Origin: a virus
Virus record (IMG/VR): IMGVR_UViG_3300008050_000030
DNA length: 64,000 nt
Strand: one strand, 5' to 3'
Under the pieces are notes generated by a model, which saw nothing but the letters and a program-made list of their open reading frames with translations, was not told where the DNA came from and ran no database searches. How positions within the stretch are numbered: position 1 is the stretch's first letter; the number at the start of each line of letters is the position of its first letter. Made by a program: the position numbers and the translations under genes. Positions 21,018 to 36,224 of this stretch are shown piece by piece.

Positions 21018-21087
21018 TAAAGGTAACGATCTCCGCGTCCCCACAACTGCCAGTTGGCAGCGGGGGACGGAGAAGGTCGGGTTTTCG

Positions 21088-21392
21088 TTACTTCTGGACG
21101 GCCTGCACCTTCGCGCGGGCCAGCACCAGCGCGAAGTCCTCCTTGGGGTGGCGCTCCCAGAGCCACTCGGGCCACTGGTCGAGCCAGGGGAGGACGCGGT
21201 CGGCGAGGTCGGTGGCGGCGCGGGCTTCACCGCGCTCCCGGACGTCGTTCAGGATGTCGATGTCCTCCTGCGTGGGCAGGGGGTACTGGGCGTAGCGGAG
21301 CGCCATGCCCTTGAACCGGGCGGTGGCCTCCTCCTTGCCGTTGCGGAGGGTGAGAGCGAGCAGCAGGCAGCGGTAGTACAGCATCTTCAGCA
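21088..21392 (-). CDS. hypothetical Trp-rich protein (101 aa)
   Basis: GGGATAAGGGAGATGAAGGAGATCCACATG context. Confidence 0.6.
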
Positions 21393-21413
21393 TGTGGATC
21401 TCCTTCATCTCCC

Positions 21414-21686
21414 TTATCCCTCCGGCGGGGGCTCCTCGTTCGTCTCTTCGTTGCTGCGGCGGGCCACGTACAGGTTCACCGGCCACTCGGGGTGGGCGTC
21501 GGGGGTGTAGGCGGCGTAGGCGCTGTAGCCCTCGCCCTCCCCAGTCTCCACGATCTCGATCAGGGGGTAGCCCTTCACGACGAGGATGTACCCCTCGGCC
21601 CGGAAGATGGTGCCGGGCGGTGGGACGACGGGGTAGTTGAAGACGTGCGTGTGGCCGTCTTGGTCTTTGGCGTAGATGGTGAGCAT
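21414..21686 (-). CDS. hypothetical protein (90 aa)
   Basis: Very high GC3; start ATG after CTGATCTGGACTCCCGC. Confidence 0.6.
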   Translation of the reverse strand: MLTIYAKDQDGHTHVFNYPVVPPPGTIFRAEGYILVVKGYPLIEIVETGEGEGYSAYAAYTPDAHPEWPVNLYVARRSNEETNEEPPPEG

Positions 21687-22081
21687 GCGGGAGTCCAGAT
21701 CAGGGGGAAGGGCGCGCTGGCCCAGAGTTGCCGGGCGGTCCAGTCGTAGCACTGATCGCCGACGTAGTTGAACGCGTGCCAGCGCACGCACTCGCGAGCC
21801 TGGTAGACGTAGGGGAAGTCGTAGAAGTAGCCCGTGAAGTCGGGGCTGTGGGACTGCATCTCGATCACGATGACGCCGAAGGTGGGGCGCTCTCCCCAAC
21901 CGTGCTCATCGAACCACGCTCGCTCCTCTTCGGTCTCGCACACCACGCCCTCGCGCAGCAGGAAGTCCATGAACTCTCCACTGGCTTCGACGCAGGCATT
22001 GGAGGCCTCGAAGGGGCTGCGATAGATGCTGCCGGCGCCGTTGGCGAAGGTGGTGACGGCCTCGTCCAATGTCATGGGCAC
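21575..22081 (-). CDS. hypothetical protein; true 3' end uncertain (GC3 decays after about 21690)
   Basis: GAGGAGG SD; GGGCATAAGG upstream; tail overlaps the next gene in its -1 frame. Confidence 0.55.
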   Translation of the reverse strand: MPMTLDEAVTTFANGAGSIYRSPFEASNACVEASGEFMDFLLREGVVCETEEERAWFDEHGWGERPTFGVIVIEMQSHSPDFTGYFYDFPYVYQARECVRWHAFNYVGDQCYDWTARQLWASAPFPLIWTPACSPSTPKTKTATRTSSTTPSSHRPAPSSGPRGTSSS

Positions 22082-22167
22082 CTCCTCGGATCACCTGCCT
22101 TATGCCCTGCAGATCGCTAAGGTTGCGACGCCCGAAGGCGTCGCAGGTGGAAGGTGGTGCCGAGGCT

Positions 22168-22446
22168 CTACGCCTCGGCGGTGGGGGCCGTGCCCCAGCC
22201 CGTCATCATGACGGGACGGTCGGGGCGCGGCATCGCCTTCATCGTCCGGGCCCGCAGCGACGCCGTCCGGGCGTCGAGCTCGGCGGCCTTTTCGTTGTGG
22301 AACCGCACCAGCGGTTCCACGGCCAGGGGCCCGAGCCGCTTGCGCTGCTCGACGATCCGTGCGTTGAAGCGGGCCAGCTTCTCGGTCTCTCGGAGGATGT
22401 CCTCCGCTTCGGCTTCGAGGGCTGCCAGGTCGGGGGGAAGTGCCAT
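22168..22446 (-). CDS. small coiled-coil protein
   Basis: Full cassette GGGATAAGAGAAGTAGACCACCAACCCTGGAGAAAGATCATG. Confidence 0.6.
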   Translation of the reverse strand: MALPPDLAALEAEAEDILRETEKLARFNARIVEQRKRLGPLAVEPLVRFHNEKAAELDARTASLRARTMKAMPRPDRPVMMTGWGTAPTAEA

Positions 22447-22486
22447 GATCTTTCTCCAGGGTTGGTGGTCTACTTCTCTTATCCCT
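22447..22486 (-). promoter_or_regulatory. start-associated cassette
   Basis: GGGATAAGAGAAGTAGACCACCAACCCTGGAGAAAGATCATG. Confidence 0.6.
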
Positions 22487-22515
22487 CGACCAGATCTACG
22501 AGTTGCGCCCCGCAC

Positions 22516-22878
22516 TCATTCCACAGGTTTCCACACTCCCATGTGCAGCTGGAACTGCCCCGTCTCGACGACCCCGAAGAGCAGGTCGCCGTGCTCCTCG
22601 AGCAGGTCTTCGACTCGTCCTTCGAGCTGGCCCCGAGTCAGGGCCGGCTCGCCCGGCCCCCCGAACCCGCTGCTGTCGCAGAAGAGGGTGTCGATTCGCT
22701 CGTGCTTCTCGTCGACGTCGTCGGCGCTGTCGCCGAGGTTCGGGAAGCCGCCGAGCTTGGCGACATCGGTCAGGCTGAAGAACGAGGAGGGGCTCAGGCG
22801 CAGGGGCTGCTTGCCTTCCTCTCGCGCCTTGTCCCCGGCCTCCCGGTTCAGCTCGTTGATCGTCTCAAGTCCCCACAT
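22516..22878 (-). CDS. hypothetical acidic protein (120 aa)
   Basis: AAGGAGTGACACGATG context; high GC3. Confidence 0.65.
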   Translation of the reverse strand: MWGLETINELNREAGDKAREEGKQPLRLSPSSFFSLTDVAKLGGFPNLGDSADDVDEKHERIDTLFCDSSGFGGPGEPALTRGQLEGRVEDLLEEHGDLLFGVVETGQFQLHMGVWKPVE

Positions 22879-22882
22879 CGTG

Positions 22883-23275
22883 TCACTCCTTGATCTTGTT
22901 CCAGCGCTTCACCGTTCGGGTGAATTGGCGCCACAGGGTGTCTCCGGGCCGTACCTTGTCCCGGGCCTGGCCCTCATCCGAGGTCTCCGCCCACAGCTCG
23001 TCGTCGGGGCCCAGCACCTGCCACCACCGTCCCGGGTCGGGCAGGGGAAGGAACCAGGCGATGGCCTCCTCCATGGCGGCATCGAACTCCTCGCGGGTCG
23101 GGTAGACCCCGTGGTTGGTGCCGCGCTTGCCGCTGCGGCTCGTGGTCGTGTAGCTGCCGCTCACCTTGTCGCCCCGCAACGACCAGCTCTCGTCGCCCTC
23201 GAAGCGGACGGCGACGAAGTCGGCGGTGCAGGTGAAGCCGATGACTCGGCCCCCGGCCTTGCCTCGAACAGTCAT
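22883..23275 (-). CDS. hypothetical protein (130 aa)
   Basis: CTGGAGAGATCATG context. Confidence 0.6.
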   Translation of the reverse strand: MTVRGKAGGRVIGFTCTADFVAVRFEGDESWSLRGDKVSGSYTTTSRSGKRGTNHGVYPTREEFDAAMEEAIAWFLPLPDPGRWWQVLGPDDELWAETSDEGQARDKVRPGDTLWRQFTRTVKRWNKIKE

Positions 23276-23526
23276 GATCTCTCCAGTTCCCACTGCCAGT
23301 GCTTGAGGATGTCGGGCAGGCGCTTCAGGGAGTAGAACGGCGGATGGGCGTAGTCGGACGCGCTGGGCTCGACCCAGTGACCGCCGGAGAAGACGACCGA
23401 GGTGATGCGTACCTCGGTCGTCTCGCCGTCTTCGTCCTCCCAGATGACGACGGTCCAGTCCTCTTCAGGCTGCGCCTCCATCTTCGCCAGCTTCTTCTTG
23501 CCGATGGGCTTCAGCTTCGGGCTCAC
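23272..23526 (-). CDS. hypothetical protein (84 aa)
   Basis: GTG after AAGGGGGTG; ATGA-coupled downstream. Confidence 0.6.
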   Translation of the reverse strand: MSPKLKPIGKKKLAKMEAQPEEDWTVVIWEDEDGETTEVRITSVVFSGGHWVEPSASDYAHPPFYSLKRLPDILKHWQWELERS

Positions 23527-23891
23527 GACACCCCCTTCGCACGTTCCTGTGCGCGTTGCAGGTGGGCGGAGGTGATGACGGAGACCACGAACAGTTCGTG
23601 ATCGACCTCCATCAGCAGTTCCTTGCAGTAGTACCGGCTGCGCACGGCGTGCCGGGTCTTCCGTGCGCAGACGGGGTCATCGCCGTGGGCGCAGTCGACG
23701 ACGCAGTCGGAGTAGCGGTCAGCGTCCAGCTCTTCGGTGACGTCGAGGATCAGCTCGTAGCCCTGCACGGTGGAGACGAGGAGCCTCTGGCCCACCGCGG
23801 AGTGCGCGAACCCGTGCAAGGTCACGTCCTTGAGGTCCACGACGTCGCCGCCGAGGCGGGCTTCCAGCACTTTGGGAACGATCACGTCCAT
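23523..23891 (-). CDS. hypothetical protein (122 aa)
   Basis: GAGAAGGG SD; high GC3. Confidence 0.65.
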   Translation of the reverse strand: MDVIVPKVLEARLGGDVVDLKDVTLHGFAHSAVGQRLLVSTVQGYELILDVTEELDADRYSDCVVDCAHGDDPVCARKTRHAVRSRYYCKELLMEVDHELFVVSVITSAHLQRAQERAKGVS

Positions 23892-24274
23892 CCCTTCTCG
23901 AGCTTGATGCTCTTCTCGGCGAGGAGCACGTCGGCACGTCCGTAGCTCATGTCCATGACGAAGAGCATCAGGAGCTGGGCCAGCTCGGCCCCGTTCTCGG
24001 CGACTCGCAGGGACTGGAGCATGTGGTCGTACTTCCCCTTGTCCTGGGCCTGGTCGCGCAGCCGCCGGAAGGGCAGCCGTGCGGTGTGGGCCTCGTCCCG
24101 GAACACGGTGTCGGACAGCCCCCAGCTGTGCGCGAGGTTGCGCACGGTCTCGGGAAGCTGCTCGAAGCGGGCCCGAAGGTCCTCAGGCGAGAGCTTCTCG
24201 TCGGGGCCGACCACGGTGTCGTGGAAGGCGTTCACTCCGCCGCGATCGGCGAAGAGTTCATCGGTGGTCTGCAT
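23882..24274 (-). CDS. hypothetical protein (130 aa)
   Basis: TGATG coupling to upstream gene. Confidence 0.65.
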   Translation of the reverse strand: MQTTDELFADRGGVNAFHDTVVGPDEKLSPEDLRARFEQLPETVRNLAHSWGLSDTVFRDEAHTARLPFRRLRDQAQDKGKYDHMLQSLRVAENGAELAQLLMLFVMDMSYGRADVLLAEKSIKLEKGWT

Positions 24275-24801
24275 CAGGCGTGGTCCACGAAGAAGCGCGG
24301 CAGCCGCTCAGCGGGCTCCGGCTCTTCTTGATTCGGGGTGTCGGCGACGTCGGCGTAGGGGGTGATGTAGAGCGAGTAGTCCTTCATCCGCTTGCCTCCT
24401 CCCAGGTCGATGTAGCCGTTCCAGGTGACCCGGACGGGGTCGCTGGGACCGACCTGCGAGGCATCGATGAGCTGGATGAGCTTCACCCCGGAGAGGGTGA
24501 AGGCGCCGACGCCGGGGACGATGATGAGCGCCACCTCGTAGGGGCCGTACTGCCCCTGGTACAGCGTCCGCCCGGCGTAGTAGCCGGCCAGCTCGCTGCC
24601 CTCCACCTCTGGGCGCCACCGCTGAGGCGCCCGGACCTGCTTCCAGTCGTAGCGCTCCAGGATGTCGTCGCCGACCACCTCAGGCCGCGGACGGCTCTTG
24701 AGGCACTCGAAGCAGGTCACCTTGGCCCAGTCCCTGGTGGAGTCGACGTCCTCCTCGGTGCAGTTGGGGGCTTCGGCGGAGCTGTACCAGTGCGTGATCA
24801 T
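24274..24801 (-). CDS. hypothetical protein (175 aa)
   Basis: GGAGGAGCGAGGATG context. Confidence 0.6.
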   Translation of the reverse strand: MITHWYSSAEAPNCTEEDVDSTRDWAKVTCFECLKSRPRPEVVGDDILERYDWKQVRAPQRWRPEVEGSELAGYYAGRTLYQGQYGPYEVALIIVPGVGAFTLSGVKLIQLIDASQVGPSDPVRVTWNGYIDLGGGKRMKDYSLYITPYADVADTPNQEEPEPAERLPRFFVDHA

Positions 24802-25199
24802 CCTCGCTCCTCCGGCTTGGCGCGCAGGCAGTCGGCGCAGGTGACCTCGGCCCACACCCCAGTGGTGTAGTCGTCGTCGCCTGCGCCGACGCAGTTCTTG
24901 GTGTCGGTGTGCCAGTGCGTCACGGCCCCGGCCTGGACCGGACCGACACCGACGTGCCCGACGAAGCCGCACTTGCACAGGAAGAAGGACGGGCCCTCGT
25001 AGTCGGCCTCCTGGGGGGCGAGCAGGACCACCCGGCTGTGGCAGCCGGGGCAGGTGCTCGACTCCATCTCGGTGACGATGTACGGGCTGGCTTCCGCCCG
25101 CTCGATCGACTCGACCTTCATGGTCAGCTCGAGCTTGATGCCGATGTCGCCGTCATCGTCGATGCCGACGAGGCAGCGGGGGCAGGTGAGATCACTCAT
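24798..25199 (-). CDS. zinc-binding protein with four CxxC pairs
   Basis: CPRC...CPGC...CKC...CADC; GGAGGG SD. Confidence 0.65.
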   Translation of the reverse strand: MSDLTCPRCLVGIDDDGDIGIKLELTMKVESIERAEASPYIVTEMESSTCPGCHSRVVLLAPQEADYEGPSFFLCKCGFVGHVGVGPVQAGAVTHWHTDTKNCVGAGDDDYTTGVWAEVTCADCLRAKPEERG

Positions 25200-25432
25200 G
25201 ATCAGGCTCCCTCCTGAGGATAGCTCCCTCCTCCATGGTGTCCCCGTGCTTGGGGGTGCCGAACTGGGTGATCTTGTTGTGGTGCGGGATCCTCTGCACG
25301 GCTCGAATCCCTCTGGCCGCGTAGGCTTGCCACGGTCCCCAGCTCTTGTCGGGGCGTCGCCGACGCCCCCACCTCTGGCCGCGAGTGAGGGCGCGGAGGG
25401 TGTCGCCCTCCTTGTAGACGGGACGCATGGCT
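25192..25432 (-). CDS. hypothetical basic protein (80 aa)
   Basis: GAGGAGTAGCCATG context. Confidence 0.5.
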
Positions 25433-25499
25433 ACTCCTCGGATTGAAAATGGGCCACACCGCTCGTAGAAGCTGGTGTGGCGGTCCGGCATGTCGGTGT

Positions 25500-25826
25500 T
25501 CAGCAAGTTGAGGATGTCCTGCATCCCCTCGGGCGCCCCCTCAAGGGCACGGGGTGCTTGCCCATGCAGAGCTCGCACACCGTGACCGTGGTGGTCAAGA
25601 ACACCGTCGTCAGCTCTTCGTCCGGGCCCAGAACCCGTGCCAGCGCGGCCTCGCCCCCGAGCATCATCGTCAGTCCCTGCTGGCGGTTCAGGGCGTCCGA
25701 CTTCACCCCGTGCCGCTCCAGCGTCATCCTCCAGAAGAGCGGGAGGCCGCCGGCGCCGATGGGCTTGTCGCACAGCTTGCAGATCGCAGCCGCCCGCAGC
25801 GCATCCTCACGCATGGGGCCCGCCAT
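25500..25826 (-). CDS. hypothetical Cys-containing protein
   Basis: TGATG coupled to upstream gene. Confidence 0.5.
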   Translation of the reverse strand: MAGPMREDALRAAAICKLCDKPIGAGGLPLFWRMTLERHGVKSDALNRQQGLTMMLGGEAALARVLGPDEELTTVFLTTTVTVCELCMGKHPVPLRGRPRGCRTSSTC

Positions 25827-26167
25827 CAGAGGTCCCGCAGCTTGATGTGGAAGGCGCCGGTCTCCTCGCGGAGGAAGAGGCGACGTTGGACGTACCAGAT
25901 CTCCTTGAACTCGGGGTAGCCCGGGTCGATGGGGAAGAGGGACAGGGAGACGAGGACCGTGACGGTCTCGACGTCGATGTCGTCGAAGCTGAGGTCCCGC
26001 ACGATCTCGAGGTCCAGCTCGCCGTCGATCGGGTCGATGCTGATGCGGACCGAGGTGACGTCGCCGTCGACGATGGCGTAGGCGAAGAAGTCCCCCATGT
26101 CGTCGACGAAGTAGCCCCACTCCATCGAGCGCAGGTAGGCGCACAGGCTGTTGATGTCGTCGCCCAT
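25826..26167 (-). CDS. hypothetical acidic protein (113 aa)
   Basis: GAAGGAGG SD; high GC3. Confidence 0.6.
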   Translation of the reverse strand: MGDDINSLCAYLRSMEWGYFVDDMGDFFAYAIVDGDVTSVRISIDPIDGELDLEIVRDLSFDDIDVETVTVLVSLSLFPIDPGYPEFKEIWYVQRRLFLREETGAFHIKLRDL

Positions 26168-26496
26168 CACGCACCTCCTTCGGCGGCCACGGCCTTGGAG
26201 TAGAGCGCGGTCAGCGAGGGGATGGGGGCGAGCCTCTTCCAGCGCTCCCCGATCCAGCCGTAGAAGAGGTCCCCGCTGTAGAGGATGTCGCCTCCACGGG
26301 GCCGCAACCCCTCCTGCAGGGCCCCCTCGGACTCGTTGAGCCAGCGCACGGCGAAGTCGTGGTCGGCGCGGTGTCCCGCGGGCACGGAACGGGTGAGGTT
26401 GACGCGGCTGTCCGGGGGAACGCCGGCGTTGGAGTCGGTGACGAAGAAGACGGTGCGCAGGTGGTCACCGTTGCGGAAGAGGCGGATGCGGTGCAT
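26167..26496 (-). CDS. hypothetical protein (109 aa)
   Basis: CCTGGAGATCTTCAATG context. Confidence 0.55.
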   Translation of the reverse strand: MHRIRLFRNGDHLRTVFFVTDSNAGVPPDSRVNLTRSVPAGHRADHDFAVRWLNESEGALQEGLRPRGGDILYSGDLFYGWIGERWKRLAPIPSLTALYSKAVAAEGGA

Positions 26497-26719
26497 TGAA
26501 GATCTCCAGGTCGGTCCACGACTGCCCGAGGCAGTGGTGCATGGTGGCGATGAAGGAGGTGCCGAGGCCCAGCTGGGCCTCCAGCCACTCCTGCGAGACG
26601 GCGTTGTCGTTGAAGCGGCAGGGGAATCCGCGAGAAGCGCAGTGCCCCAAGACGTGGGCAGGGAGTTCGACGAGCCGGCGCTGGCGCGTCTCGAAGATCT
26701 TGCCGGGTGCGCGAGGCAT
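26465..26719 (-). CDS. hypothetical Cys/His small protein
   Basis: Cassette GGGATAAGGGGCGTAGACCACCAACCCGGAGAACCAATG. Confidence 0.5.
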   Translation of the reverse strand: MPRAPGKIFETRQRRLVELPAHVLGHCASRGFPCRFNDNAVSQEWLEAQLGLGTSFIATMHHCLGQSWTDLEIFNAPHPPLPQR

Positions 26720-26995
26720 TGGTTCTCCGGGTTGGTGGTCTACGCCCCTTATCCCTCCCTCCAACTCTCAGTTGACGCTAAGGAGGGGCGCCACTCCCTC
26801 GACTGTCCCGGCGCACTCGCAACGGGACCAACACGAACTTCATGATCTTTGTCTCCAGGGGTGCGGTTGCCTTATCCCGCTGCGCACGCATGAAGGTGCA
26901 GGGGAGCGACCCTGGTGAAGGATCCCACGGGGAGGGTGTAGGGAGAGAGAGAGAGGGAGGGAGAGCAATGCTCGGGAGCCGGGATCTTGTCGAAC

Positions 26996-27011
26996 ACAAC
27001 TGCGCAGTTGT
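26996..27011. promoter_or_regulatory. perfect 16-bp palindrome ACAACTGCGCAGTTGT
   Basis: Longest version of the recurring CAACTG/CAGTTG half-sites. Confidence 0.55.
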
Positions 27012-27124
27012 CATTCGGCAGAGGCCGTGCGTCCTCCCAGAGAAACAGCAACACCTAGTTGCTCAACAGGGAACTGCGCAAGCGGTCCGAAATCTACGAC
27101 AACCGAGTGTCCTACGCTAAGCGA

Positions 27125-27153
27125 GACCCTCCCCCCAGCGTAGGGGAGAGGGT
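27125..27153. terminator. GC-rich hairpin
   Basis: GACCCTCCCC-CCAGCGTA-GGGGAGAGGGTC, preceded by GCTAAG. Confidence 0.55.
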
Positions 27154-27187
27154 CTGCTTCCAGAGTGCCACGCGGCGACCCCTGGAA

Positions 27188-27205
27188 GAGCGCCGCGCGG
27201 CGCTC
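27188..27205. terminator. perfect palindromic hairpin GAGCGCCGCGCGGCGCTC
   Basis: 18-bp self-complementary sequence just after the stop of the 27205..27405 gene. Confidence 0.55.
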
Positions 27206-27405
27206 TAGTTCGAGGTGTCGGGCTCCTCGGCCTTGGGGGCCTCGGCCTCCTCGGCCTTGGAGAACTTGCCCTTGATCCAGGTGACGGCCTTGCCACCGGT
27301 GCGGGACCAGATCGGCATGGCGGCGACGCCGCTCAGGAAGGTGAGGGCCAGCACGAGGGCGAGCTTGACGAGGGACTGGGCGGTGAAGCGGGCGATGGTC
27401 TTCAT
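27205..27405 (-). CDS. small single-pass membrane protein (MKTIA-family paralog)
   Basis: MKTIARFTAQSLVKLALVLALTF; full promoter cassette upstream. Confidence 0.55.
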   Translation of the reverse strand: MKTIARFTAQSLVKLALVLALTFLSGVAAMPIWSRTGGKAVTWIKGKFSKAEEAEAPKAEEPDTSN

Positions 27406-27588
27406 GATCTTGACTCCAGGGGTTGGTAGGAACGCGTCGCAGAGAGCACTTGCTTCCTGGACACTTCTCTTATCCCCCCGTAGAGGGCTGATTTCACGAG
27501 ATCCGTATATCTCTGCGGCTATCTCAATTCCTGGGCGAGGGGCCTTCATGAGGTAACTGTGTAGTGGCCGCCGATTCAGGGCCCGGAT

Positions 27589-27733
27589 GCCAACCGCTTG
27601 TTGTACCCCCCGCCGGTCGGGGACTTAGGCGTCAACTGCTTGTTGTAGTGACCGCTGGTTTGGGACCTGGGTGCCAACTGCTTGTTGCTCCCATATACCT
27701 GGCCCGGAATCTGGAGTGACAACCACTTGTTGC
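27589..27733. repeat. four tandem direct repeats with about 42-bp period
   Basis: Cores CAACCGCTTGTTG 27591, CAACTGCTTGTTG 27633 and 27675, CAACCACTTGTTG 27720. Confidence 0.7.
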
Positions 27734-27796
27734 TAAGGACAATCGGCCGGGGACCCGGGGCAACGGCATGCAGCCATGTACCCCGGGTCCCAGATC

Positions 27797-28135
27797 TCAT
27801 CGGCCACAGCCAGAGCACTCCGTGAGGGGGAGCCCCTGCTGCTTCTCGTGCCGCACCAGCCGCGGGCTGGTGAGCACGATCTCGTTGCTGTGTCGCCGGT
27901 TCCACGGCATCCAGAGCCGGGTGCGCAGCTCCACGCAGTCTCCGGGGGAGACGACCTTCATGTCCTCGCGGAACACGGAGATCTGCGTACGTGTACGGGG
28001 CACCTCGTACGTGTAGGTCTTGGTCCCGTCCGAGAAGACGTAGACATCCCAGACCTTGTCCGGGGCGCCCTTCTTCTGACGGCGGGCGTCCACCTCGCGG
28101 GAGACGAGGTGGACGCTCAGGGTGACGGCAGCCAT
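27797..28135 (-). CDS. hypothetical protein (112 aa)
   Basis: TGATG coupled; C-terminal CSGCGR. Confidence 0.6.
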   Translation of the reverse strand: MAAVTLSVHLVSREVDARRQKKGAPDKVWDVYVFSDGTKTYTYEVPRTRTQISVFREDMKVVSPGDCVELRTRLWMPWNRRHSNEIVLTSPRLVRHEKQQGLPLTECSGCGR

Positions 28136-28497
28136 CAGCCCAAGGTCACGGTGTCGAGGACCTCGTACACCCAGGCCTCGTGATCCCGGGCCTCACCGCG
28201 CCAGACCTGCTCGTGGCGGAGCATGATCAGCGTGGCCAGGTGGCCAGGCTTGTCGAAGTCACCGAGACGCTCCAGGAGCTTCTCCTTCATCTCCTTCTGG
28301 TACGCGTGGTAGGTCTCGCGGTCGACGCCGTCCGAGAGGTCGATCAGCCAGATCGGTCGGCCGACGAGGTAGCCCTGCAGGCTCATGAGGTAGTTCCGCA
28401 GCTCCATGCGGCGACGCATGGCCCGTCCGAAGAGGCCGACGATTCCGAAGAGGCCGACGATGACGAAGGTGATGAGGAGGCGGGCGAGGGTCTTCAT
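28135..28497 (-). CDS. small membrane protein (MKT-family paralog)
   Basis: MKTLARLLITFVIVGLFGIVGLFG; full cassette upstream. Confidence 0.65.
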   Translation of the reverse strand: MKTLARLLITFVIVGLFGIVGLFGRAMRRRMELRNYLMSLQGYLVGRPIWLIDLSDGVDRETYHAYQKEMKEKLLERLGDFDKPGHLATLIMLRHEQVWRGEARDHEAWVYEVLDTVTLG

Positions 28498-28560
28498 AGT
28501 GAGCTCCAGGGGTGGTTGGTCTACTTCTCTTATCCCCCAGTGACAACTCCCAGTTGTCGC
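28498..28560 (-). promoter_or_regulatory. promoter/5'-UTR cassette
   Basis: Minus sense: GACAACTGGGAGTTGTC ... GGGGGATAAGAGAAGTAGACCAACCACCCCTGGAGCTCACTATG. Confidence 0.6.
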
Positions 28561-28753
28561 CCAACGCTAAGGGAGGGGGATTGGCGATCCCCTTAGCCCA
28601 GATCCCGAAGGAGCTGGTCCCATGAGAGGAAACCTCACCTGCGGCCGGGGCGTCCGGCCGGCGGGGATCGAACCCGCTCCTGTTCATGCCCAGCCCCCTG
28701 CTGCGTGTACGTGGAGGTGCCGGCCTCACCGCAGCAGGGGGTTTGTCGATCAC

Positions 28754-29194
28754 TCAGACGACCCGGAGGCCTCGGGGGTTGCCGGACTCGTCGAGGCCGA
28801 GGGCCGCGCGCTGCTCGGGACCGAGCATGCCGGCCTCCATGAAGGCGTCACGCATCTGCTCTCGGGGCAGCACACCCTCCCAGCGCCACTCGACGGTGCC
28901 GTTGGGGGCGATGTGGCGCTGGGTGTGCGCCACCTCTCCTGGCCGGGCGAGGGCGTGGCCCACGTGCTCCGCCGGCAGGCGGAAGAGCGCGTACCCGACG
29001 TCGAGCTCGACGGACCCGTCGGGGTAGACCGCGGCGACGCGGGCCTCGGTGGGCTGGTCGACGGTCATCGTCTCCGGCTTGGCGGCGGGCTTGGTGGGCT
29101 TGGCGGCGGGCTTGCGCCATCCCAGCAGGGTGACGATGGCTCCGAGGATGAAGCCGAGGATCACGGGGGCGAACAGACGGATGAAGGCCTTCAT
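28754..29194 (-). CDS. membrane protein with Lys/Pro-rich linker (MK-family paralog)
   Basis: MKAFIRLFAPVILGFILGAIV; AKPTKPAAKP linker. Confidence 0.65.
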   Translation of the reverse strand: MKAFIRLFAPVILGFILGAIVTLLGWRKPAAKPTKPAAKPETMTVDQPTEARVAAVYPDGSVELDVGYALFRLPAEHVGHALARPGEVAHTQRHIAPNGTVEWRWEGVLPREQMRDAFMEAGMLGPEQRAALGLDESGNPRGLRVV

Positions 29195-29255
29195 TGGAAA
29201 CTCCAGGGGTTGGTGGTCTACTCCTCTTATCCCGCCGTACCAACTGCCAGTTGCC
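29195..29255 (-). promoter_or_regulatory. promoter/5'-UTR cassette
   Basis: Stop TGA then GGCAACTGGCAGTTGGTACGGCGGGATAAGAGGAGTAGACCACCAACCCCTGGAGTTTCCAATG. Confidence 0.6.
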
Positions 29256-29852
29256 TCAGTCGTACAGGCCCAGCGCAGCGACGACCGCGTGCGCCTTCTT
29301 CAGGGTCTTCTCATCGACCGACCCCCCCGGGTCGATCGAGACCCGGATGTAGATGCCGCTCCGCTCGAGCTCGTAGTCTTCGACGTAGGGGAGCGCCCGC
29401 TCCTCGGGCTCCTCCTGCGTCTCATGCGCGCTTGCGACGGCCAGGGCGTCGCTGAGGTAGCAGTTGCACCGCGGCTCCTCCTCCCAGCTGTTCTGGTGGG
29501 TGCAGGCGTCACCGTGCGCCTGGTCCGAGTCGGAGACGCGCTGGAGCACGGCTCGGAGCAGCGCGATCGTGTGCGCCTCTTCGGAGGGCTCGGAGTAGGT
29601 CTTCTCCGCGTCGCCCATGGCGAAGATGCGAGCCGGCTTCGCATGCGTCCGGAGGATGTTCTGGATCGGCCTTCCCATGAGGAGGCCGGTGGAGTCCTTC
29701 ACGCCGAGGATCTCCCACCCCTCGCCTTCGAGATCTTCGACCGCCTCCTTTGCGATGACGGCGGGACCGGCGATGCCGACCTGCGCACTCGTGGTGCTGT
29801 GGCGGATCTGAAGGAGCTGGGTGCGGGTCAACAGGATGTCTTTGTCTGCCAT
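29256..29852 (-). CDS. hypothetical protein (198 aa)
   Basis: Cassette upstream; high GC3. Confidence 0.7.
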   Translation of the reverse strand: MADKDILLTRTQLLQIRHSTTSAQVGIAGPAVIAKEAVEDLEGEGWEILGVKDSTGLLMGRPIQNILRTHAKPARIFAMGDAEKTYSEPSEEAHTIALLRAVLQRVSDSDQAHGDACTHQNSWEEEPRCNCYLSDALAVASAHETQEEPEERALPYVEDYELERSGIYIRVSIDPGGSVDEKTLKKAHAVVAALGLYD

Positions 29853-29965
29853 GATCTTCTCCGGGGAAGGGGTTCACACCTCTTATCCCCCCATACCAAC
29901 TGGAAGTTGTCAGCTAAGCAGGAGCGAGGGGGGACCCTCGCTGCGACTGCTTTCGGCCCGCCCCC

Positions 29966-30285
29966 CTAGAAGGGGGACAGGTCTTCCAGCCCGGTTCCGA
30001 ACCGGGCCCGGACTGCGTCCCACACGCGGCACGCCGCGTAGTACGGCAGCCCAATGGGTGCCGTCACCACCAGCAGGGCGGCCATGCCCGCGCGCTGCCA
30101 GCCCGACTCCGACGAGTCGGAGGCGAACCCGACCCCGGTCCCGTACAGGGACCCGAGCATCCTCGTCACCGTGACGGTGATGAAGGAGGCGGCGGCGAGA
30201 GCCAGCGGCCGGAGCGCTGCCGTGAGGCAGCGGGTCAGCAGGGTGGCGATGAACTTGGCGAGGAACTTGGCGATGGTCTTCATAT
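29966..30285 (-). CDS. small membrane protein (MKTIA-family paralog)
   Basis: MKTIAKFLAKFIATLL; CCCTGGAGTTCGATATG context. Confidence 0.6.
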
Positions 30286-30563
30286 CGAACTCCAGGGAAC
30301 GAAGACGGCAGGGGCGCGAGAAAACCTCGCAAAGCCTCCTGTTGGTGACACTTCTCTTATCCCCGAAACACCCCCTTTTTCTGCACTTTGCAGCTGCCCT
30401 CACGCCTCCCCATCGAGCGGGTAAGTGTGCCCCTCGGCCCCGGTCAAGGGGCGCGTTTGACGGGCGGGCCGCCCGAGCTATTGCTCCCAGAGTCAGCCAG
30501 GGGTTATTGCCCCTGACCTGTCGCGCGGGGATCGAACCCGCCTCCCTTCACACCTGTCGTCAG

Positions 30564-31151
30564 CTACCCAGCCGGACTCGAACCGGCCCTTTCCTGGATC
30601 GTCTGCTCTCGGTACCAGCACCAGTAGGTCTCGGTGTGGTGCCGCCGCCATGGGTTGTGCCCTTCCGGCTTCGGCACCAAGTCCCAGGCGACCCCGCGGC
30701 TGTGGGTGCGCCGAGGCCGCTGCTTGCAGCCGGGGTCGGGGTCGTGGATGCCCCAGTACTCCGACTTCAGCGCGTAGCAGTAGACGCGGCCCCTCCCTCG
30801 GCCCCAGCGGATGGCCTGATCGATCTCCCAGGGCAGGTCCGCCTCGGCGATCTCAGGCAGGTACCCGTGCTCCTCCACCAGCCGAGTGAGCATCCTCTGG
30901 CCCAGCGCCCTCCTCTCTGCCTTCGTCATCGGGATGAGCGGAGGCCGGGAGGGGAACTTGGGGAGCTCGCCCTCCCAGAGCCGCTTGCAGTCCCCGCAGA
31001 CGTCCTCGGCGAAGATGGACTCGAGCGGGCGCTCGACAGGGTCCTTGGGCAGCGCGTTGTGGTCGACGCCGGCGATGTGCGCCTTGCCTGTGTTCCACGG
31101 GTCCTTCAGGCCGAGCTGGTACTCGGTACGCCGGGCCTGGATGAACCTCAT
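30564..31151 (-). CDS. Cys/His-rich hypothetical protein, possibly HNH-like
   Basis: CGDC...CYALKSEYWGIHDPDPGC...H..H; preceded by a 12-codon uORF. Confidence 0.6.
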   Translation of the reverse strand: MRFIQARRTEYQLGLKDPWNTGKAHIAGVDHNALPKDPVERPLESIFAEDVCGDCKRLWEGELPKFPSRPPLIPMTKAERRALGQRMLTRLVEEHGYLPEIAEADLPWEIDQAIRWGRGRGRVYCYALKSEYWGIHDPDPGCKQRPRRTHSRGVAWDLVPKPEGHNPWRRHHTETYWCWYREQTIQERAGSSPAG

Positions 31152-31188
31152 GTCGGCGTCTCGCGGTAGGTCACGCTCAGGGACATGC

Positions 31189-31395
31189 TCACTTCCTCTC
31201 GTGGGACCGTCGAAGACGCTCGGCGCGCTGCAGGACCCCGGGCCTGCGGGGGCCCAGGCGCAGCTCTTCCCCGAAGCGGAGTCCGCCCTCGTCGAGGATG
31301 AACTTCTTGTGGAAGCCCGGGCCGTAGCCCGAACTCGCTCGAGGGTTCCTGGACCCGTGGGGGATGCCGCGGGCTTCCCAGCTGGGAATGGTCAT
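31189..31395 (-). CDS. hypothetical basic small protein
   Basis: CCTGGAGATCTCACCATG context. Confidence 0.5.
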   Translation of the reverse strand: MTIPSWEARGIPHGSRNPRASSGYGPGFHKKFILDEGGLRFGEELRLGPRRPGVLQRAERLRRSHERK

Positions 31396-31817
31396 GGTGA
31401 GATCTCCAGGCAGGGCGGGTTCTCGCCGCGAATGACGGAACAGCAGAAGGTGATCGAGCGGACGGGCGGCAGGGTGTTGAACTGGCCGCCCTTGCAGTGG
31501 TAGTCGCCGCCGTTGCCGCGCTCCCGGTGCGAGCTCCCCTCCTCCAGCCAGAAGGACTCTCGGTTGATCTCGTACCCGGATCGAGGCAGCCAGGTCTCGA
31601 AGTTGTCGGTCGCGGTGTTGATGTAGACGGTGGCGTCGAGCTCGCGCTCCTCGGACAGCCGGGCCTCCTGGAAGATCCAGAGGATGCCGGCCAGCGCCCC
31701 GATGATGATCAGGGTGATGAGCAGATCCATGCCGCTCATCGAGCCCCCGCCACCGCCCGAGCTGTAGTCGTTGTAGTCCCCGCCACCGCCGCCCGAATCG
31801 AACATTCCATCAGCCAT
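31392..31817 (-). CDS. Gly-rich N-terminus + TM helix protein
   Basis: SGGGGGDYNDYSSGGGGG then DLLITLIIIGALAGILWIF; AAGGAGAAGACCGATG. Confidence 0.65.
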   Translation of the reverse strand: MADGMFDSGGGGGDYNDYSSGGGGGSMSGMDLLITLIIIGALAGILWIFQEARLSEERELDATVYINTATDNFETWLPRSGYEINRESFWLEEGSSHRERGNGGDYHCKGGQFNTLPPVRSITFCCSVIRGENPPCLEISP

Positions 31818-31990
31818 CGGTCTTCTCCTTGTTGTGCGCGGTCACGCCCCGGCTGCGATGACGGCGACGAAGCCCGGGTCGGGACCGAAGTACCAGTAGA
31901 TCCGAGCACTCTTCCTTCTTGCCGAGTTCGATCACGTCTGTCTCCAGTTGGGTGTACCCGCCTTATCCCGTGAACAACTGTCGGTTGCTA

Positions 31991-32061
31991 ATCAGCGAGG
32001 GGGACTCGAACCCCCAACATCTCCTTTGCGCGGGAGGGCTCTACCATTGAGCTATCTCTGA
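31991..32061 (-). tRNA. tRNA-like gene with defective anticodon arm
   Basis: Canonical D-arm TAGCTCAATGGTAGAGC and T-arm GGGGGTTCGAGTCCCCC; acceptor stem with one A-G mismatch; anticodon arm is only CTCC/GGAG with an 8-nt loop lacking U33; no encoded CCA. Confidence 0.5.
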
Positions 32062-32097
32062 CACTCTTCTTATCCCCTCAACAACTCCCAGTTGACG

Positions 32098-32298
32098 CTA
32101 AGCGCAGAGCCCCTCGAAGAGGGGGTGCGCAGTCGTCTCAGGACAGATCGGAGAGCACGAGGAGGACCAGCCAGCGCCGGCCCCCTCACGCCAGATGACG
32201 TAGTCCTTGCCTTCGTGGCGGTGGGTCCCGCATCGGCGGGCGGTGCGGGGCGGCTTGTCCACGATCACCGCCACCCCCAGCCGGGTCTTGACCCTCAT
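32098..32298 (-). CDS. small Cys/His protein (66 aa)
   Basis: ATGA-coupled; stop TAG lies inside the CTTAGC element. Confidence 0.5.
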   Translation of the reverse strand: MRVKTRLGVAVIVDKPPRTARRCGTHRHEGKDYVIWREGAGAGWSSSCSPICPETTAHPLFEGLCA

Positions 32299-32766
32299 CC
32301 CGCGAAGTGGGTGAAGCGCGCTTCGCCCGTCTTCTCTTGGGGAGCGAGCGCGCCTGCGATGATGCGCTGAACCTGCCGCGCCATCAGGCGGAACCGGAAG
32401 TAGTCGATCCACTCGTGCTCGCGCTGGTGGTCCCGCAGCTCGAGCAGGGGCAGGGCCGCCTGGCAGAACTTGACCGCCAGCTCGGGGTTGACCACGGCGA
32501 CGGCCGCCACCATGTCCACCACGGCCTGTCCGTGGACGACGTGGATGCGCTCCCACCACGCGATGTTCTCCTCCCGCGAGGCGCCCGGGACGTCGGCGAA
32601 GACGTCCCGGTTGTCCTCCGTGATCTGATCGACGGCGGGTCGGGCGTCGGGGCAGGCGTCCAGCAGGACGTCGAAGAAGTCCAGCAGGAAGCCGTGGGTG
32701 CAGGAGTGGTCGTTGGCCAGCAACAGGCGCTGGAACTTCTCGGTCGGGTTCTCTTCGTTGAGCATG
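32295..32766 (-). CDS. hypothetical protein (157 aa)
   Basis: Cassette GGGATAAGGAGATCACAACCCTGGAGGAGCACATG. Confidence 0.65.
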
Positions 32767-32873
32767 TGCTCCTCCAGGGTTGTGATCTCCTTATCCCGCC
32801 GGACCCGCATCGGTTGCTAAGAGCGAGCGTCCACCGGACCCAGGAACCACGAGGGTTCCTGGGTCCGAGGACT

Positions 32874-33582
32874 TCAGCTCGCTGCCCGGGCGGAGAACCG
32901 CAGGACCCCCGGCTTGGCGACGTCCAGGAGTCCCTCGGCCCGCCACCGGAAGACGGTGGCCCTCTCGTTGAGCATCGTCGCCGTGCGGGTCGCGGCGTAC
33001 TGCTGCGCGGCGTACTCTTCTGCGGGACGGAGGAGAGCCGCCCATGCCTGCTCGTCGTACGGCAGCTCGAGCTCGAACTTCGCGTCCCCTGGGTCCGAGT
33101 CCGGGGGCGAGCCGGCGGCTTCCCACTCCGCGTAGAGGGCCTCGTCCTCGGCCACTACTTTCTGCAGCCTCTCCTGGAGGTCGGTGGTGTCCCAGTAGGC
33201 CGAGACGGCCTTGCGCGCCTCCTCGCGCTCGACCTTCTCCTTGGCTGCTGCGCGCTCTCGCCCCAGCGCGGCCTCGTGCCGCTCCAGGGCGCCGGCCGTC
33301 ATGGCCTTGATGTCTTGGAAGGCCGCAGCGGTGGCCTTGGCCACGATGGCGCGGTGGTGTCCCCGCAGGGCCTTGGCCAGGTCCGCGGAGATGGCCTTCT
33401 CTGAGAAGGTGGGGCCGTCGTCCACCTTCAGGGTGAGGCCGTCGCCGTCGTCCACGTAGAGGAGGAGCTTCAGGCAGCTCCCCTCGAACTTGCACTCGAG
33501 GTCGCAGAGGTCGACCTTCCACTCTCCGGGGAGGGCGTCGGCCGCGTCGAAGAGGGCGTCGAGGATGGTCTTCTTGCTCATG
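32874..33582 (-). CDS. hypothetical protein (236 aa)
   Basis: Cassette with CCCCCGGAGATCATCATG. Confidence 0.65.
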
Positions 33583-33647
33583 ATGATCTCCGGGGGTTGT
33601 GGTCTGCTTCTCTTATCCCTCCGCGGCAACCCCCAGTTGACGCTAAG

Positions 33648-33680
33648 AGAGGAGGGGCAGCCGTAGCCGCCCCTCCTCTC
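33648..33680. terminator. GC-rich hairpin
   Basis: GAGGAGGGGC-AGCCGTAG-CCGCCCCTCCTC between stop and next cassette. Confidence 0.55.
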
Positions 33681-33697
33681 CCTCGGCCGCCGCCGTC

Positions 33698-34225
33698 CTA
33701 CATGTCGTCGAAGCCGGCCGCCGCCGGCTCGTCGTCGGACACCCACTGGGTGCCCTCGGCGGCCTCGTCGGCGGGGACCGTGAAGGAGTCGGCCACCGCC
33801 TCGCGGCGGCGGCGCTCCTCGGCCAGGAAGGACGACGCCTGCGCCGCCTCGGCCTGCAGACCCGCCATGCGGGCGCGCATCTCCTCCATCTCCATCGCGA
33901 TGGCCTCCTGGCCGTTGCCGATGACCTCGAGCGCCGGGCGCTCGAGGCCGAAGATGGCGCTGACGGTGTCGTGGGCGGCGACGGCGGGGATCCCCGCCTC
34001 CGTCATCGTCGCGAAGGCCTTCGCGAAGGCCGTCGCCTTCGCCGTCGCCACCTCGACGCTCTGGAGGCGCACCTGGTGCACCCCCATCACGATGCCGGTG
34101 ATGGCGGACGTACCGAGCGTCACGAGGCTGGTGGCGTGTGCGAGTTCGTCTTCGAGGCGGGCCTTGCGCTCCTCGCGCTCGAGCTCCATCTCCTTGCGGC
34201 GGGCAGCGATCTGGTCCTTGGTCAT
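33698..34225 (-). CDS. hypothetical Ala/Glu-rich coiled-coil protein
   Basis: CCTGGAGACTGAGACCATG context. Confidence 0.65.
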   Translation of the reverse strand: MTKDQIAARRKEMELEREERKARLEDELAHATSLVTLGTSAITGIVMGVHQVRLQSVEVATAKATAFAKAFATMTEAGIPAVAAHDTVSAIFGLERPALEVIGNGQEAIAMEMEEMRARMAGLQAEAAQASSFLAEERRRREAVADSFTVPADEAAEGTQWVSDDEPAAAGFDDM

Positions 34226-34314
34226 GGTCTCAGTCTCCAGGTCGAGGGGAAGTTGAAGTCCTCGACACCTCTCTTATCCCTCCAACAACCGCCAGTTGCA
34301 CTCGGATCTAAAAG

Positions 34315-34385
34315 TTGAAAAACAAGCTCTCGGCGATGCCCAGGCCGAACGATCTCACCGAGAGCAGTCCTGATTGAGTGCGTTC
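34315..34385 (-). ncRNA. candidate small RNA with its own cassette promoter and a U-tract terminator
   Basis: GGGGGATAAGGAGAACG promoter copy at 34381-34396; 8-bp stem GCTCTCGG/CCGAGAGC (34326-34365) followed by TTGTTTTTCAACTTTTAG; no ORF. Confidence 0.35.
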
Positions 34386-34424
34386 TCCTTATCCCCCGAA
34401 ATCGGGGAGTTGCCGATCGGGGAG

Positions 34425-34455
34425 GAGGGACCTAGATCCCTCCTCCCCTTCTCCG
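34425..34455. terminator. GC-rich hairpin downstream of the kinase gene
   Basis: GGGGAGGAGGGA-CCTAGATCC-CTCCTCCCC. Confidence 0.55.
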
Positions 34456-34562
34456 CGGGCAGGCACCGAGGCGGGGTACAGACTCCACGCCTTCTGTTCG
34501 TGCGGGTCGCCCTCAGCCACGCTCTCGGGCATGAGTCCCGCCCTGCGGACTTTCGATCGAAC

Positions 34563-35012
34563 TCAGCCCCTATCCCAAGGAGGCACGGGGTTGCCGGCTC
34601 CCCAGGGGTGCTCCCACCTGGACCGCATGCGGCGAATCGCGTCCAGAGGGACCCCATGGCTGTTCCGCTTGAACAGCTGCTCGTCGGTGAGCCCTCCGTC
34701 GAAGAGGTCGACGATGAAGGTCTTCAGGCGGAGAGGGGAGTCGGAGAGCTGGAGGTAGGGCTCCAGCTCCCACCGAGTGCTGAAGGTGTTGGCCACCGCG
34801 GTGATGGGCTGCCCGGCCAGGACCGACTCCTGGGCGCCCTTGATGCACTGGGCGTGGGCCTGCGCCAGCTCCTGCGGCTTGAAGGTGTACGTGCCGTCCT
34901 CCGCGGTGAAGTAGTCGTCGGCCGAGAAGATGGCGGCGTCGAGGAGGTGAGCGAAGGAGGTCTTCCCCGAGCCGGGGAGGCCTCGAACGAGAATCAAGAT
35001 CTGGTCAGTCAT
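34563..35012 (-). CDS. P-loop kinase (AAA_33 / polynucleotide-kinase-like)
   Basis: ILVRGLPGSGKTSFAHLL Walker A near N-terminus; about 150 aa; ATGA-coupled. Confidence 0.7.
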   Translation of the reverse strand: MTDQILILVRGLPGSGKTSFAHLLDAAIFSADDYFTAEDGTYTFKPQELAQAHAQCIKGAQESVLAGQPITAVANTFSTRWELEPYLQLSDSPLRLKTFIVDLFDGGLTDEQLFKRNSHGVPLDAIRRMRSRWEHPWGAGNPVPPWDRG

Positions 35013-35134
35013 CCGAGCACCAGGGCGAGGAGAGCCAGCACCCCGAGGAGGGAGAGCCAGGGGAGGGAGACGATGAGCACGATGAAGAGCACCGTGTTGC
35101 GGGCGACGCGGCGGAGGTAGCGGAGGAGGCGCAT
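35009..35134 (-). CDS. possible 41-aa membrane peptide
   Basis: MRLLRYLRRVARNTVLFIVLIVSLPWLSLLGVLALLALVLG; weak RBS. Confidence 0.3.
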   Translation of the reverse strand: MRLLRYLRRVARNTVLFIVLIVSLPWLSLLGVLALLALVLG

Positions 35135-35142
35135 GGGTTGTC

Positions 35143-35778
35143 TCAGAGGACCGAGACGCCGCACAGCTCCCAGAGAGGCTGCGTGGTGATGTCGAGGACA
35201 TCGACGAGGCGGGCCAGCGCAGTGGCGCTGAGCTCGCGGACGTTCCAGTTCAGGGACACCTGGGTCTCCATCTCTCCGTGCCGCGGCCCGTTCACCCAGG
35301 ACTCCTCGGGGATGGGCCCGGGGCCGCGGTGGGTCGAGGAGCGGTCCAGGTGCGGGCGCTCGTCCATGTTGGTGAGTCGGCAGCCCTCGGACGCGGCCAG
35401 CTCCCGAATCTGCTTCCAGGTCTCGGCCTCGGCATCGAAGGCGATGAACTCCGTGGACAGGTCGATCATCTCCTTCTTCTCGGTCCACAGCCCGTAGACG
35501 CGCCAGCGCGACCGGCGGGCGACGACGTCCTGGAGCGGGCGGACGCGGGCCAGGAAGGCGCGCTCGCCGTCGGAGAGGTGCAGGAACTCCTCGGTCTGGT
35601 AGTGGAGGCGGATGGCCTCTCGCCACGCCGGAGAGTCGAGGCCGGCAGGTTGCTCGGGCGGCCACGTCAGGTTGGCGGCCTTGGCCAAGTCGGGCAGGTG
35701 GCAGGTGGAGACGTCGCGGAGGTACTCACCGTGGCGGTGAATCTCCCCGATGCTGTTGATGTGGAGACCGATCTGCAT
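35143..35778 (-). CDS. hypothetical protein (211 aa)
   Basis: High GC3; preceded by a 200-bp lower-GC leader carrying the TATACCTGCGAGAT box. Confidence 0.7.
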   Translation of the reverse strand: MQIGLHINSIGEIHRHGEYLRDVSTCHLPDLAKAANLTWPPEQPAGLDSPAWREAIRLHYQTEEFLHLSDGERAFLARVRPLQDVVARRSRWRVYGLWTEKKEMIDLSTEFIAFDAEAETWKQIRELAASEGCRLTNMDERPHLDRSSTHRGPGPIPEESWVNGPRHGEMETQVSLNWNVRELSATALARLVDVLDITTQPLWELCGVSVL

Positions 35779-35983
35779 TCATGTCCCTCGGTAAGCATTG
35801 TGGAGGTCGGGCCGACGATCGCATCGGAAAGTCTGTTGTGTCTTGTGCACGTCCGTCCTCTAGCAACCTCCTTATACCTGCGAGATCACAGCACTTTCAG
35901 GGCTAAAGATGCGGTCCTTTCGGTCCTAGATCGAGGTCACGACTCCTCTTGAAGTGATCACCTGTGGTTTTGATCTACTCTAT

Positions 35984-36166: not shown

Positions 36167-36224
36167 CAGATCTCCAGGTAGGTAGGTGGTCGTCCTACTT
36201 ATCCAGGAAATCCGCCCACTTTCA

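Follow-up and report, generated by a model that had tools for sequence, protein, structure and literature searches.

What does a tandem array of short repeats do in a stretch of phage DNA that carries no gene? The question is raised by a locus in a viral metagenome sequence, for which the initial annotation described four tandem 42-bp direct repeats and suggested iterons, a parS centromere or a repressor-binding array. The window, meaning the whole 64,000-nt stretch analysed here, corresponds to positions 19895-83894 of a 188,377-bp ENA metagenome contig, and an identical 44-kb JGI contig exists.

Gene content of the phage contig

Its genes suggest that the contig belongs to a large tailed phage infecting a high-GC host (66% GC). 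Its gene content includes three tRNA calls, a GroES-like gene, an M15 endolysin-like domain, peptidoglycan-binding domains, a GIY-YIG nuclease, RlaP, two ligase-like proteins and a vault-like protein. The 867-aa protein encoded at 60489-63092 (minus strand) carries a major-vault-protein shoulder domain (E = 2.6e-25) and a vault repeat domain, which are unusual for a phage genome. From about 17.8 to 44.3 kb, all genes are leftward, small and without family matches; this part is referred to here as the early block. ARAGORN called a 73-nt tRNA with a four-base anticodon (cgca) in the block at 31990-32062 (minus strand), which may be frameshift-suppressor-like or a miscall, and an unusually long 95-nt tRNA-Thr(ggt) at 30563-30657 (minus strand). 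Five early-block genes on the minus strand (27205-27405, 28135-28497, 28754-29194, 29966-30282 and 38059-38358) start with MK[TAK][ILF]... and have one hydrophobic helix after the start, forming a set of small membrane proteins. A 120-aa small membrane protein holds a perfect 18-bp tandem duplication (28426-28461).

A search for ParB/Rep-like proteins had been proposed as a check of the array. Pfam analysis of the ~89 window ORFs gave no Rep, ParA, ParB or HTH family, and none is listed in the source gene calls of the two 10-kb flanks. No HTH, RHH, ParB or other DNA-binding family was found among the ~89 window ORFs and 8 ORFs of the related contig L196 described below, and Pfam and PHROGs gave no regulator candidate among the window and L196 proteins scanned. 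Of the ~124 kb that the 188-kb contig has beyond the window, ~18 kb was covered.

Structure and surroundings of the array

The CAACYRCTTGTTG pattern has exactly four matches in the 64-kb window, at 27591, 27633, 27675 and 27720 on the plus strand, and none in 100 dinucleotide-preserving shuffles. The core-to-core distances of 42, 42 and 45 bp equal 4.0, 4.0 and 4.3 helical turns. Tandem Repeats Finder reported a period-42 array at 27589-27687 with a score of 114, which is the highest-scoring tandem repeat of the window and the sole non-coding one. The four direct repeats, the positions of their cores, the recurrence at 42, 42 and about 45 bp and the four-turn phasing of the initial annotation were thus reproduced. 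The likeness between units reaches further leftward, to ~27560 (Table 1).

Pairwise identity is 85-100% for the 13-bp cores and only 24-72% for the 29-bp spacers. Units 1-3 are alike over their entire length; their spacers are 48-72% identical and their three cores agree at 12-13 of 13 positions. Taken at the spacer identity of units 1 and 2, the probability that at least 12 of 13 core bases are identical is ~0.001. The differences among array cores fall in the central bases of a dyad whose outer CAAC and GTTG are constant, and the cores are imperfect in the inner left half of this dyad. The JGI and ENA contigs are identical across the array, so they provide no population variation. A CRISPR-like array was considered and rejected, because the conserved part is only 13 bp and the 'spacers' are up to 72% alike; the near-identical repeats of at least 23 nt and unrelated spacers of a CRISPR (mini-)array are not present.

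The array lies in a gene-free stretch of 391 bp (27406-27796; 390 bp in the initial annotation), in agreement with the gene calls of the source assemblies. Its two neighbours had been taken for small membrane proteins. This is right for the downstream gene at 27205-27405, but the upstream gene encodes a protein without a hydrophobic helix, whose operon partner (28135-28497) has one. The array is placed between the terminator hairpin at 27750-27791 and a dyad-less GGGGGGATAAGAG module preceding the 66-aa gene. The 112-aa upstream protein is an orphan in a 5.8-billion-protein set, its AlphaFold model (pLDDT 38) was unusable, and IMG/VR searches with the two neighbouring proteins gave no relatives. 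The array itself has no -10-like motif, and a scan for standard sigma-70 promoters gave nothing useful near it.

Table 1. Coordinates of the array, of its sequence relatives in the window and of the adjacent features.
Feature	Position	Strand	Remark
Tandem array, four ~42-bp units	27560..27736	-	each unit opens with core CAACAAG[C/T][A/G]GTTG
Core 4, CAACAAGTGGTTG on the minus strand	27720..27732	-	first core in transcription direction
Core 3, CAACAAGCAGTTG	27675..27687	-	
Core 2, CAACAAGCAGTTG	27633..27645	-	
Core 1, CAACAAGCGGTTG	27591..27603	-	
Span of all 14 window CAAC-N5-GTTG dyads	21044..34298	-	
Single dyads, n = 10	21044, 26762, 27049, 28544, 29241, 29897, 31975, 32082, 33627, 34286	-	
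N6 dyad variant, CAACTGCGCAGTTG	26997-27010	-	
Span of 19 GGATAAGR promoter-like modules	21412..42422	-	one orientation
Terminator-type hairpin closing the upstream two-gene operon	27750..27791	-	-37.7 kcal/mol, z = -4.5
GGGGGGATAAGAG promoter-like (-10-type) module without its own dyad	27467..27479	-	122 bp downstream of core 1 centre
Conserved non-coding blocks CATGAAGGCCCC and TAGCCGCAGAGATATACGG, array-promoter interval	27503..27550	-	both in L196
66-aa single-pass membrane protein gene, downstream of the array	27205..27405	-	GGAG Shine-Dalgarno at 27414-27417
112-aa orphan gene, directly upstream	27797..28135	-	no hydrophobic helix

The array core and a dyad of promoter-like modules

The 13-bp dyad CAAC-N5-GTTG occurs 14 times in the window, compared with 0.34 expected, and all copies are within 21.0-34.3 kb. 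Other spacings are rare in the window: N2-N4 and N7 are absent, N6 occurs twice, and the three N8 matches include two that overlap N5 dyads. When the N6 variants are counted, 7 of the 16 dyads lie within 26762-27732. On the minus strand, the ten single dyads have the consensus CAACTGGSAGTTG. A weight matrix built from these ten sites only ranks the array cores 10th-14th among all window positions, and by this measure the array core is a variant of the CAAC-N5-GTTG dyad. CAAC and GTTG are invariant in the 16 window sites and in 10 sites of L196, while the centre varies, and none of the 26 sites shows covariation between the arms. Since the outer CAAC and GTTG neither vary nor covary, it is likely that the sequence is read, rather than pairing.

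The motif GGGATAAGRG is present 19 times where 1.05 copies are expected, in a single orientation (minus strand) and within 21.4-42.4 kb. Eight single dyads start 19-21 nt upstream of GGATAAGR, with a gap of 6-8 nt to the motif, and most other modules have CAAC or GAAC alone at the dyad position. The typical module consists of a GC-rich hairpin, TTAGC, the dyad, 6-8 nt, GGATAAGRG, ~15-30 nt, GGAG and a start codon, and one module has a tRNA gene within ~13 nt after it. Based on this layout and on the nearby tRNA, GGATAAG fits a -10-type element with transcription starting just downstream, and we infer that GGGATAAGRG is a promoter, although GATAAG has no final T of the standard sigma-70 -10 element. 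The left arm of the dyad may double as a -35-type element, because CAAC or GAAC is kept at the same place in promoters without the full dyad. TTAGC was rejected as a -35 element, as it lies a variable 23-35 nt from GGATAAG. Apart from one dyad in L125, neither motif is present in L122 and L125, the loci on either flank that reach ~9 kb past the window ends.

Several observations accompany the promoter-like modules. The locus L122 (1-438), ~9 kb right of the window end, includes part of a 266-aa gene with a weak precomputed Sigma70_r3 match; its 146 available residues gave no Pfam match. The phage may encode a sigma-like factor, possibly relevant to the non-standard GGGATAAG promoters. A literature search on the GGGATAAG motif returned nothing usable. 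The boxes of host regulators, namely LexA GAAC-N4-GTTC, CIRCE and the DasR dre site, as well as integron attC core sites, were compared with the dyad by inspection and set aside owing to mismatched spacing or arms. The dyad at 21044 has no GGATAAG after it; instead, it is followed by a conserved leader (window ~20985-21056, minus strand; L196 9675-9750). Immediately ahead of the Shine-Dalgarno sequence of a 379-aa gene, this leader carries the inverted repeat CTCGCAGGTATACTTGCGAG; the leader is conserved in L196 and could act as a translational operator or an RNA hairpin.

Conservation of the locus in a related contig

The 359-aa protein encoded at 18532-19611 has a homologue of 39-41% identity on the syntenic 28.7-kb contig L196, a distant relative, and orthologous proteins of the window and L196 are 29-76% identical. 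L196 has nine dyads (0.25 expected) and nine GGATAAG motifs (0.73 expected), and judged by these counts it has the same dyad and promoter system as the window phage. Nucleotide searches of isolated phages and plasmids gave no relatives, and tblastn of 18 concatenated early-block proteins against phages gave no hit. Among three DNA patterns searched in IMG/VR, two had no match and the third had three, all of them by chance. A metagenome scan for CAACNNNTTGTTG occurring twice, a loose pattern, gave AT-rich chance matches among the matches listed. A genome scan for CAACAAGNNGTTG pairs gave 64 scattered matches in varied taxa; the GGATAAG module is present in none, and these matches did not look related to the array.

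The first 6 kb of L196 has only two nucleotide-level matches to the window, namely the array region and a second non-coding stretch, and the genes flanking these two stretches in L196 are not homologous to those of the window. The array region aligns as L196 1282-1399 with window 27783-27672 (77.7% over 121 nt, E = 1.7e-17). The block TCCTTAGCAACAAGTGGTTGTCACTCCA around core 4 (27712-27739) is identical at 28 of 28 positions in L196 (1324-1351), and the hairpin at 27750-27791 is kept (-44.7 kcal/mol) with two compensatory pair changes. Conserved blocks extend down to GGGGGGATAAG. L196 has a second dyad, CAACAGGGAGTTG, 53 bp after its first, and the centres of this dyad and of core 1 both lie 48 bp from the conserved CATGAAGG (ATG) block. 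Cores 3, 2 and 1 of the window thereby occupy the place of the single second dyad of L196. L196 has two dyads at the locus and the window has four, so the array arose by tandem duplication that raised the copy number from 2 to 4, with cores kept and spacers drifting; in this alignment, one ancestral 42-bp unit was amplified threefold to give cores 3, 2 and 1.

The only detectable homologue of the 112-aa orphan (29% identity) is encoded at L196 2524-2886, on the other side of the same non-coding locus. By this comparison, genes are shuffled between the putative promoter/terminator cassettes, while the 112-aa gene stays linked to the locus. The second, mostly non-coding stretch (26720-27203, minus strand; L196 2135-2530) is conserved directly downstream of the 66-aa gene. 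It contains an identical 15-mer GCAACTAGGTGTTGC (27048-27062), the N6 dyad CAACTGCGCAGTTG, a CT-rich tract and a GGATAAGG module (26870) followed only by a 21-codon ORF, and it possibly encodes a non-coding RNA or serves as another control region. L196 also has two terminator hairpins with a dyad on each side (607-685 and 1251-1343, dyads 66 and 80 bp apart), an arrangement not seen in the window.

Evaluation of coding and RNA-level functions

The initial annotation had noted an ORF spanning the array that only translates the repeats with mediocre GC3. This ORF, at 27576..27905 on the minus strand with NKQL/NKWL/NKRL motifs, is present, and a genuine repeat-containing protein is very improbable. 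The frame is open, the 42-bp period preserves it, and GC3 in this frame climbs to 0.76-0.86 within the repeats. However, GC3 is 0.67 overall and 0.75 outside the overlap with the 112-aa gene, below the 0.89-0.99 of the three neighbouring genes (GC1/GC2 of the ORF are 0.52/0.58). The ORF overlaps the 112-aa gene by 109 nt and otherwise crosses the terminator hairpin, the source assemblies call no gene at the array, and the core changes are non-synonymous at codon positions 1-2 (Q/W/R). Conserved coding in relatives had been named as the result that would favour a protein; L196 is without two of the units and the frame is not kept. From the low GC3 relative to the neighbours and from the core variation on codon positions 1-2, the array is non-coding.

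An element acting at the RNA level is improbable, though less so than a protein. In this reading, transcription of units 3 to 1 would start from a promoter in unit 4 (TTGTCA, 19-20 nt, TATATG) and yield a leader or small RNA. Its repeated CAAC-loop-GUUG hairpins would capture or titrate a protein that binds RNA, or stand ahead of a tiny conserved ORF (ATG at 27549). TTGTCA and TATATGG are common to both phages, and the small ORF MK(A/G)P..G...AA(E/D)IYG...RGDK can be aligned between them, differing by four synonymous changes and a 6-nt indel that keeps the frame. The whole region also folds slightly better than shuffles (z = -2.4), but mainly owing to the terminator, while the dyads as RNA hairpins reach only -1.0 to -1.4 kcal/mol and covary in none of the 26 sites. 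At ordinary modules, the dyad is upstream of the -10-like motif and hence outside that transcript. The putative promoter has a spacer of 19 versus 20 nt and a -10 element without its final T, the small ORF has no Shine-Dalgarno sequence, a GC3 of 0.50 and rare codons, and Rfam covariance models over 26500-28800 gave nothing relevant at E <= 1. The tiny ORF itself (27469-27549, minus strand; MKAPRPGIEIAAEIYG...RGDK) aligns with MKGPSNGFQVAADIYG...RGDK* at L196 1438-1527 (plus strand), and its 3' end coincides with the GGGGGGATAAG promoter motif; its conservation may be at the coding or the DNA level.

Evaluation of replication, partition and neutral duplication

Among the three suggestions of the initial annotation, the iteron and centromere readings gained no support, and only the repressor-binding array agrees with the evidence. 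That the array is an origin, or another DNA-handling site for packaging or partition, at which an initiator, a terminase small subunit or a ParB-like protein would act on the repeated dyads, is doubtful. Direct repeats of a core are found on one helix face in a non-coding tract both here and in ori-lambda, where four dyad-symmetric iterons are bound by the lambda O protein, and in the parS/parC centromere repeats. The four phased dyad repeats are in keeping with such a site, as is a non-coding locus better conserved than the neighbour genes. The array lies in the lowest-GC kilobase of the window (0.632), flanked by the conserved short AT-rich islands TATATGG and ATATACGG, and some phage origins, such as those of T4 and T7, coincide with promoters. 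Nevertheless, a DNA-handling site leaves unexplained why the dyad stands at a fixed distance from the promoter motif in at least eight other places, and unlike those systems, the core here belongs to a promoter-tied motif family. The neighbours are the orphan 66-aa and 112-aa proteins and not an initiator gene (Rep/O-type); no parA/parB or parM/parR pair adjoins the repeats. No Rep, helicase, primase, ParA, ParB or ParR family appears in the window or in the listed calls of the 10-kb flanks. The cumulative GC skew, proposed as a check for an origin, is monotonic and shows no extremum at 27.6 kb, and the points of divergent transcription are near 17.8 and 44.3 kb rather than at the array. There is no marked AT-rich unwinding region, as the local GC of 53-61% is like that of other intergenic gaps of the block, and the copy number differs between the relatives (2 versus 4).

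It is also possible, though we consider it unlikely, that function resides in two ancestral dyads only, core 4 and one other, and that the additional two 42-bp units came from a neutral tandem duplication or are a scar of recombination such as repeated promoter/terminator cassettes produce. L196 has just two dyads at the locus, units 1-3 are alike along the whole unit and are therefore duplicates, and modules are shuffled between the two phages as described for PeSL cassettes (PMC2839356). However, cores agreeing at 12-13 of 13 positions beside spacers of 48-72% identity would be unlikely without selection on the cores, and the 42-bp period is exactly four helical turns.

Comparison with known regulatory systems

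Short dyads in many copies are known from the repressor operators of phages, including the conserved inverted repeats (CIRs) bound by the repressor of the Streptomyces phage phiC31, the dispersed operators of P1 C1 and the clustered, tripartite OR/OL operators of lambda. The likeness lies in a short dyad with many intergenic copies among the early genes, adjacent to promoters or overlapping them and frequently following a terminator directly; some copies are clustered, and in the known systems these are filled cooperatively. The differences are that no repressor gene was found among the proteins scanned, that the dyad is 13 bp with conserved arms of only 4-6 bp, and that the array has a four-turn period of 42 bp in place of adjacent sites ~23 bp apart. 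The array also overlaps no recognisable promoter, and the phage looks like a large lytic one, with no integrase or immunity genes seen.

The promoter-early stem-loop (PeSL) cassettes of the T4-type phages RB49 and phi1 combine a stem-loop terminator, an early promoter and a Shine-Dalgarno sequence before orphan genes in a hyperplastic region (PMC2839356). The 19 modules have this composition and are likewise repeated before orphan genes, with gene shuffling between cassettes among relatives; the array, having no -10-like motif, is not a cassette of this type. In contrast to the modules here, PeSL promoters fit the host sigma-70 consensus and the PeSL stem-loop itself is the palindromic part, and neither a separate sequence-invariant dyad nor a promoter-less tandem array is described there (PMC2839356).

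A second comparison is offered by the SAS motif of Cluster K mycobacteriophages, a 13-bp asymmetric motif in one orientation before non-structural genes; an inverted repeat (ESAS) directly precedes roughly half of the copies and is suspected to be a site for a DNA-binding protein, since departures from it do not preserve pairing (PMC3203893). Both are GGGATA... motifs (GGGATAGGAGCCC there and GGGATAAGAGAAG here), and about half the copies here also have an upstream inverted repeat. SAS, however, is 3-7 bp from the start codon and includes the ribosome-binding site, whereas a separate GGAG follows ~15-30 nt downstream here and one module directly precedes a tRNA. The ESAS arms are 17 bp, and no tandem array is described (PMC3203893).

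Operator reading and its implications

The general idea of a phased, non-coding array for protein binding, rather than a repeat protein, is supported by the promoter-linked dyad, and the repressor-binding version is favoured because at least eight promoter-like modules carry, always at the same position, a dyad of which the array core is a variant. Operator sets are characterised by the same sequence recurring at promoters and by dyad symmetry with invariant outer bases and a variable centre; both are found here, the former in the eight dyads 19-21 nt upstream of GGATAAGR. With about even confidence, we read the array as an auxiliary operator cluster with four sites for a candidate phage regulator of early promoters.

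The regulator would probably be phage-encoded and dimeric, with one dimer on each dyad. The same protein would recognise the CAAC-N5-GTTG dyad overlapping the -35 position of ~8 early promoters; with GATAAG taken as the -10 element (-12 to -7), the centre of this dyad would fall near -27. A dimer at this place would compete with RNA polymerase and shut off a subset of the early promoters; we consider it a repressor because proteins bound near -27 normally block RNA polymerase. In the array, four sites spaced 4.0, 4.0 and 4.3 turns apart would be filled cooperatively on one face, each being probably weaker than the promoter dyads since the inner left arm has AA for TG. Once filled, the array might assist the neighbouring promoter of the 66-aa membrane-protein gene (27467-27479) as a set of auxiliary operators, store the regulator locally, or do both.

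The operator reading agrees with the core sequence, which is CAACAAGCAGTTG on the transcribed strand compared with the consensus CAACTGGSAGTTG, and with the retention of cores while spacers drift. Against it, no DNA-binding family was found in the proteins scanned, and all four array cores have AA where the promoter dyads mostly have TG, so the array cores could be read by a different protein, or the AA could be shared by descent only. Part of the 'dyad' may also be a -35-type promoter element and not an operator. The comparative support comes from one relative, L196.

A wider reading concerns the ~1.1-kb, mostly non-coding locus formed by the array, the tiny membrane-protein gene and the second conserved stretch with three more dyads, which is better conserved than the surrounding genes. 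It is conceivable, but unlikely, that this locus is a control hub of the phage early programme, either as a titration or decoy array that times the shut-off of early promoters by sequestering the dyad-binding factor, or as a promoter-coupled replication origin. If so, it would represent a regulatory logic so far undescribed for large phages of high-GC hosts.

As an element, the array is most likely of an ordinary kind; the phage lineage that carries it is unstudied. If the operator reading is correct, a single 13-bp dyad would define a regulon of ~10 early promoters in this uncultivated 188-kb phage lineage, and the array would be the best bait for catching the regulator. Homologues of the early-block genes of this lineage were almost absent in the searches made. 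The practical value would be modest: promoters and operators usable as parts in high-GC hosts, and a way to approach the timing of early genes in large phages. The locus would also be a case of a non-coding control region that outlasts the genes around it in conservation and grows by tandem duplication of an operator unit.
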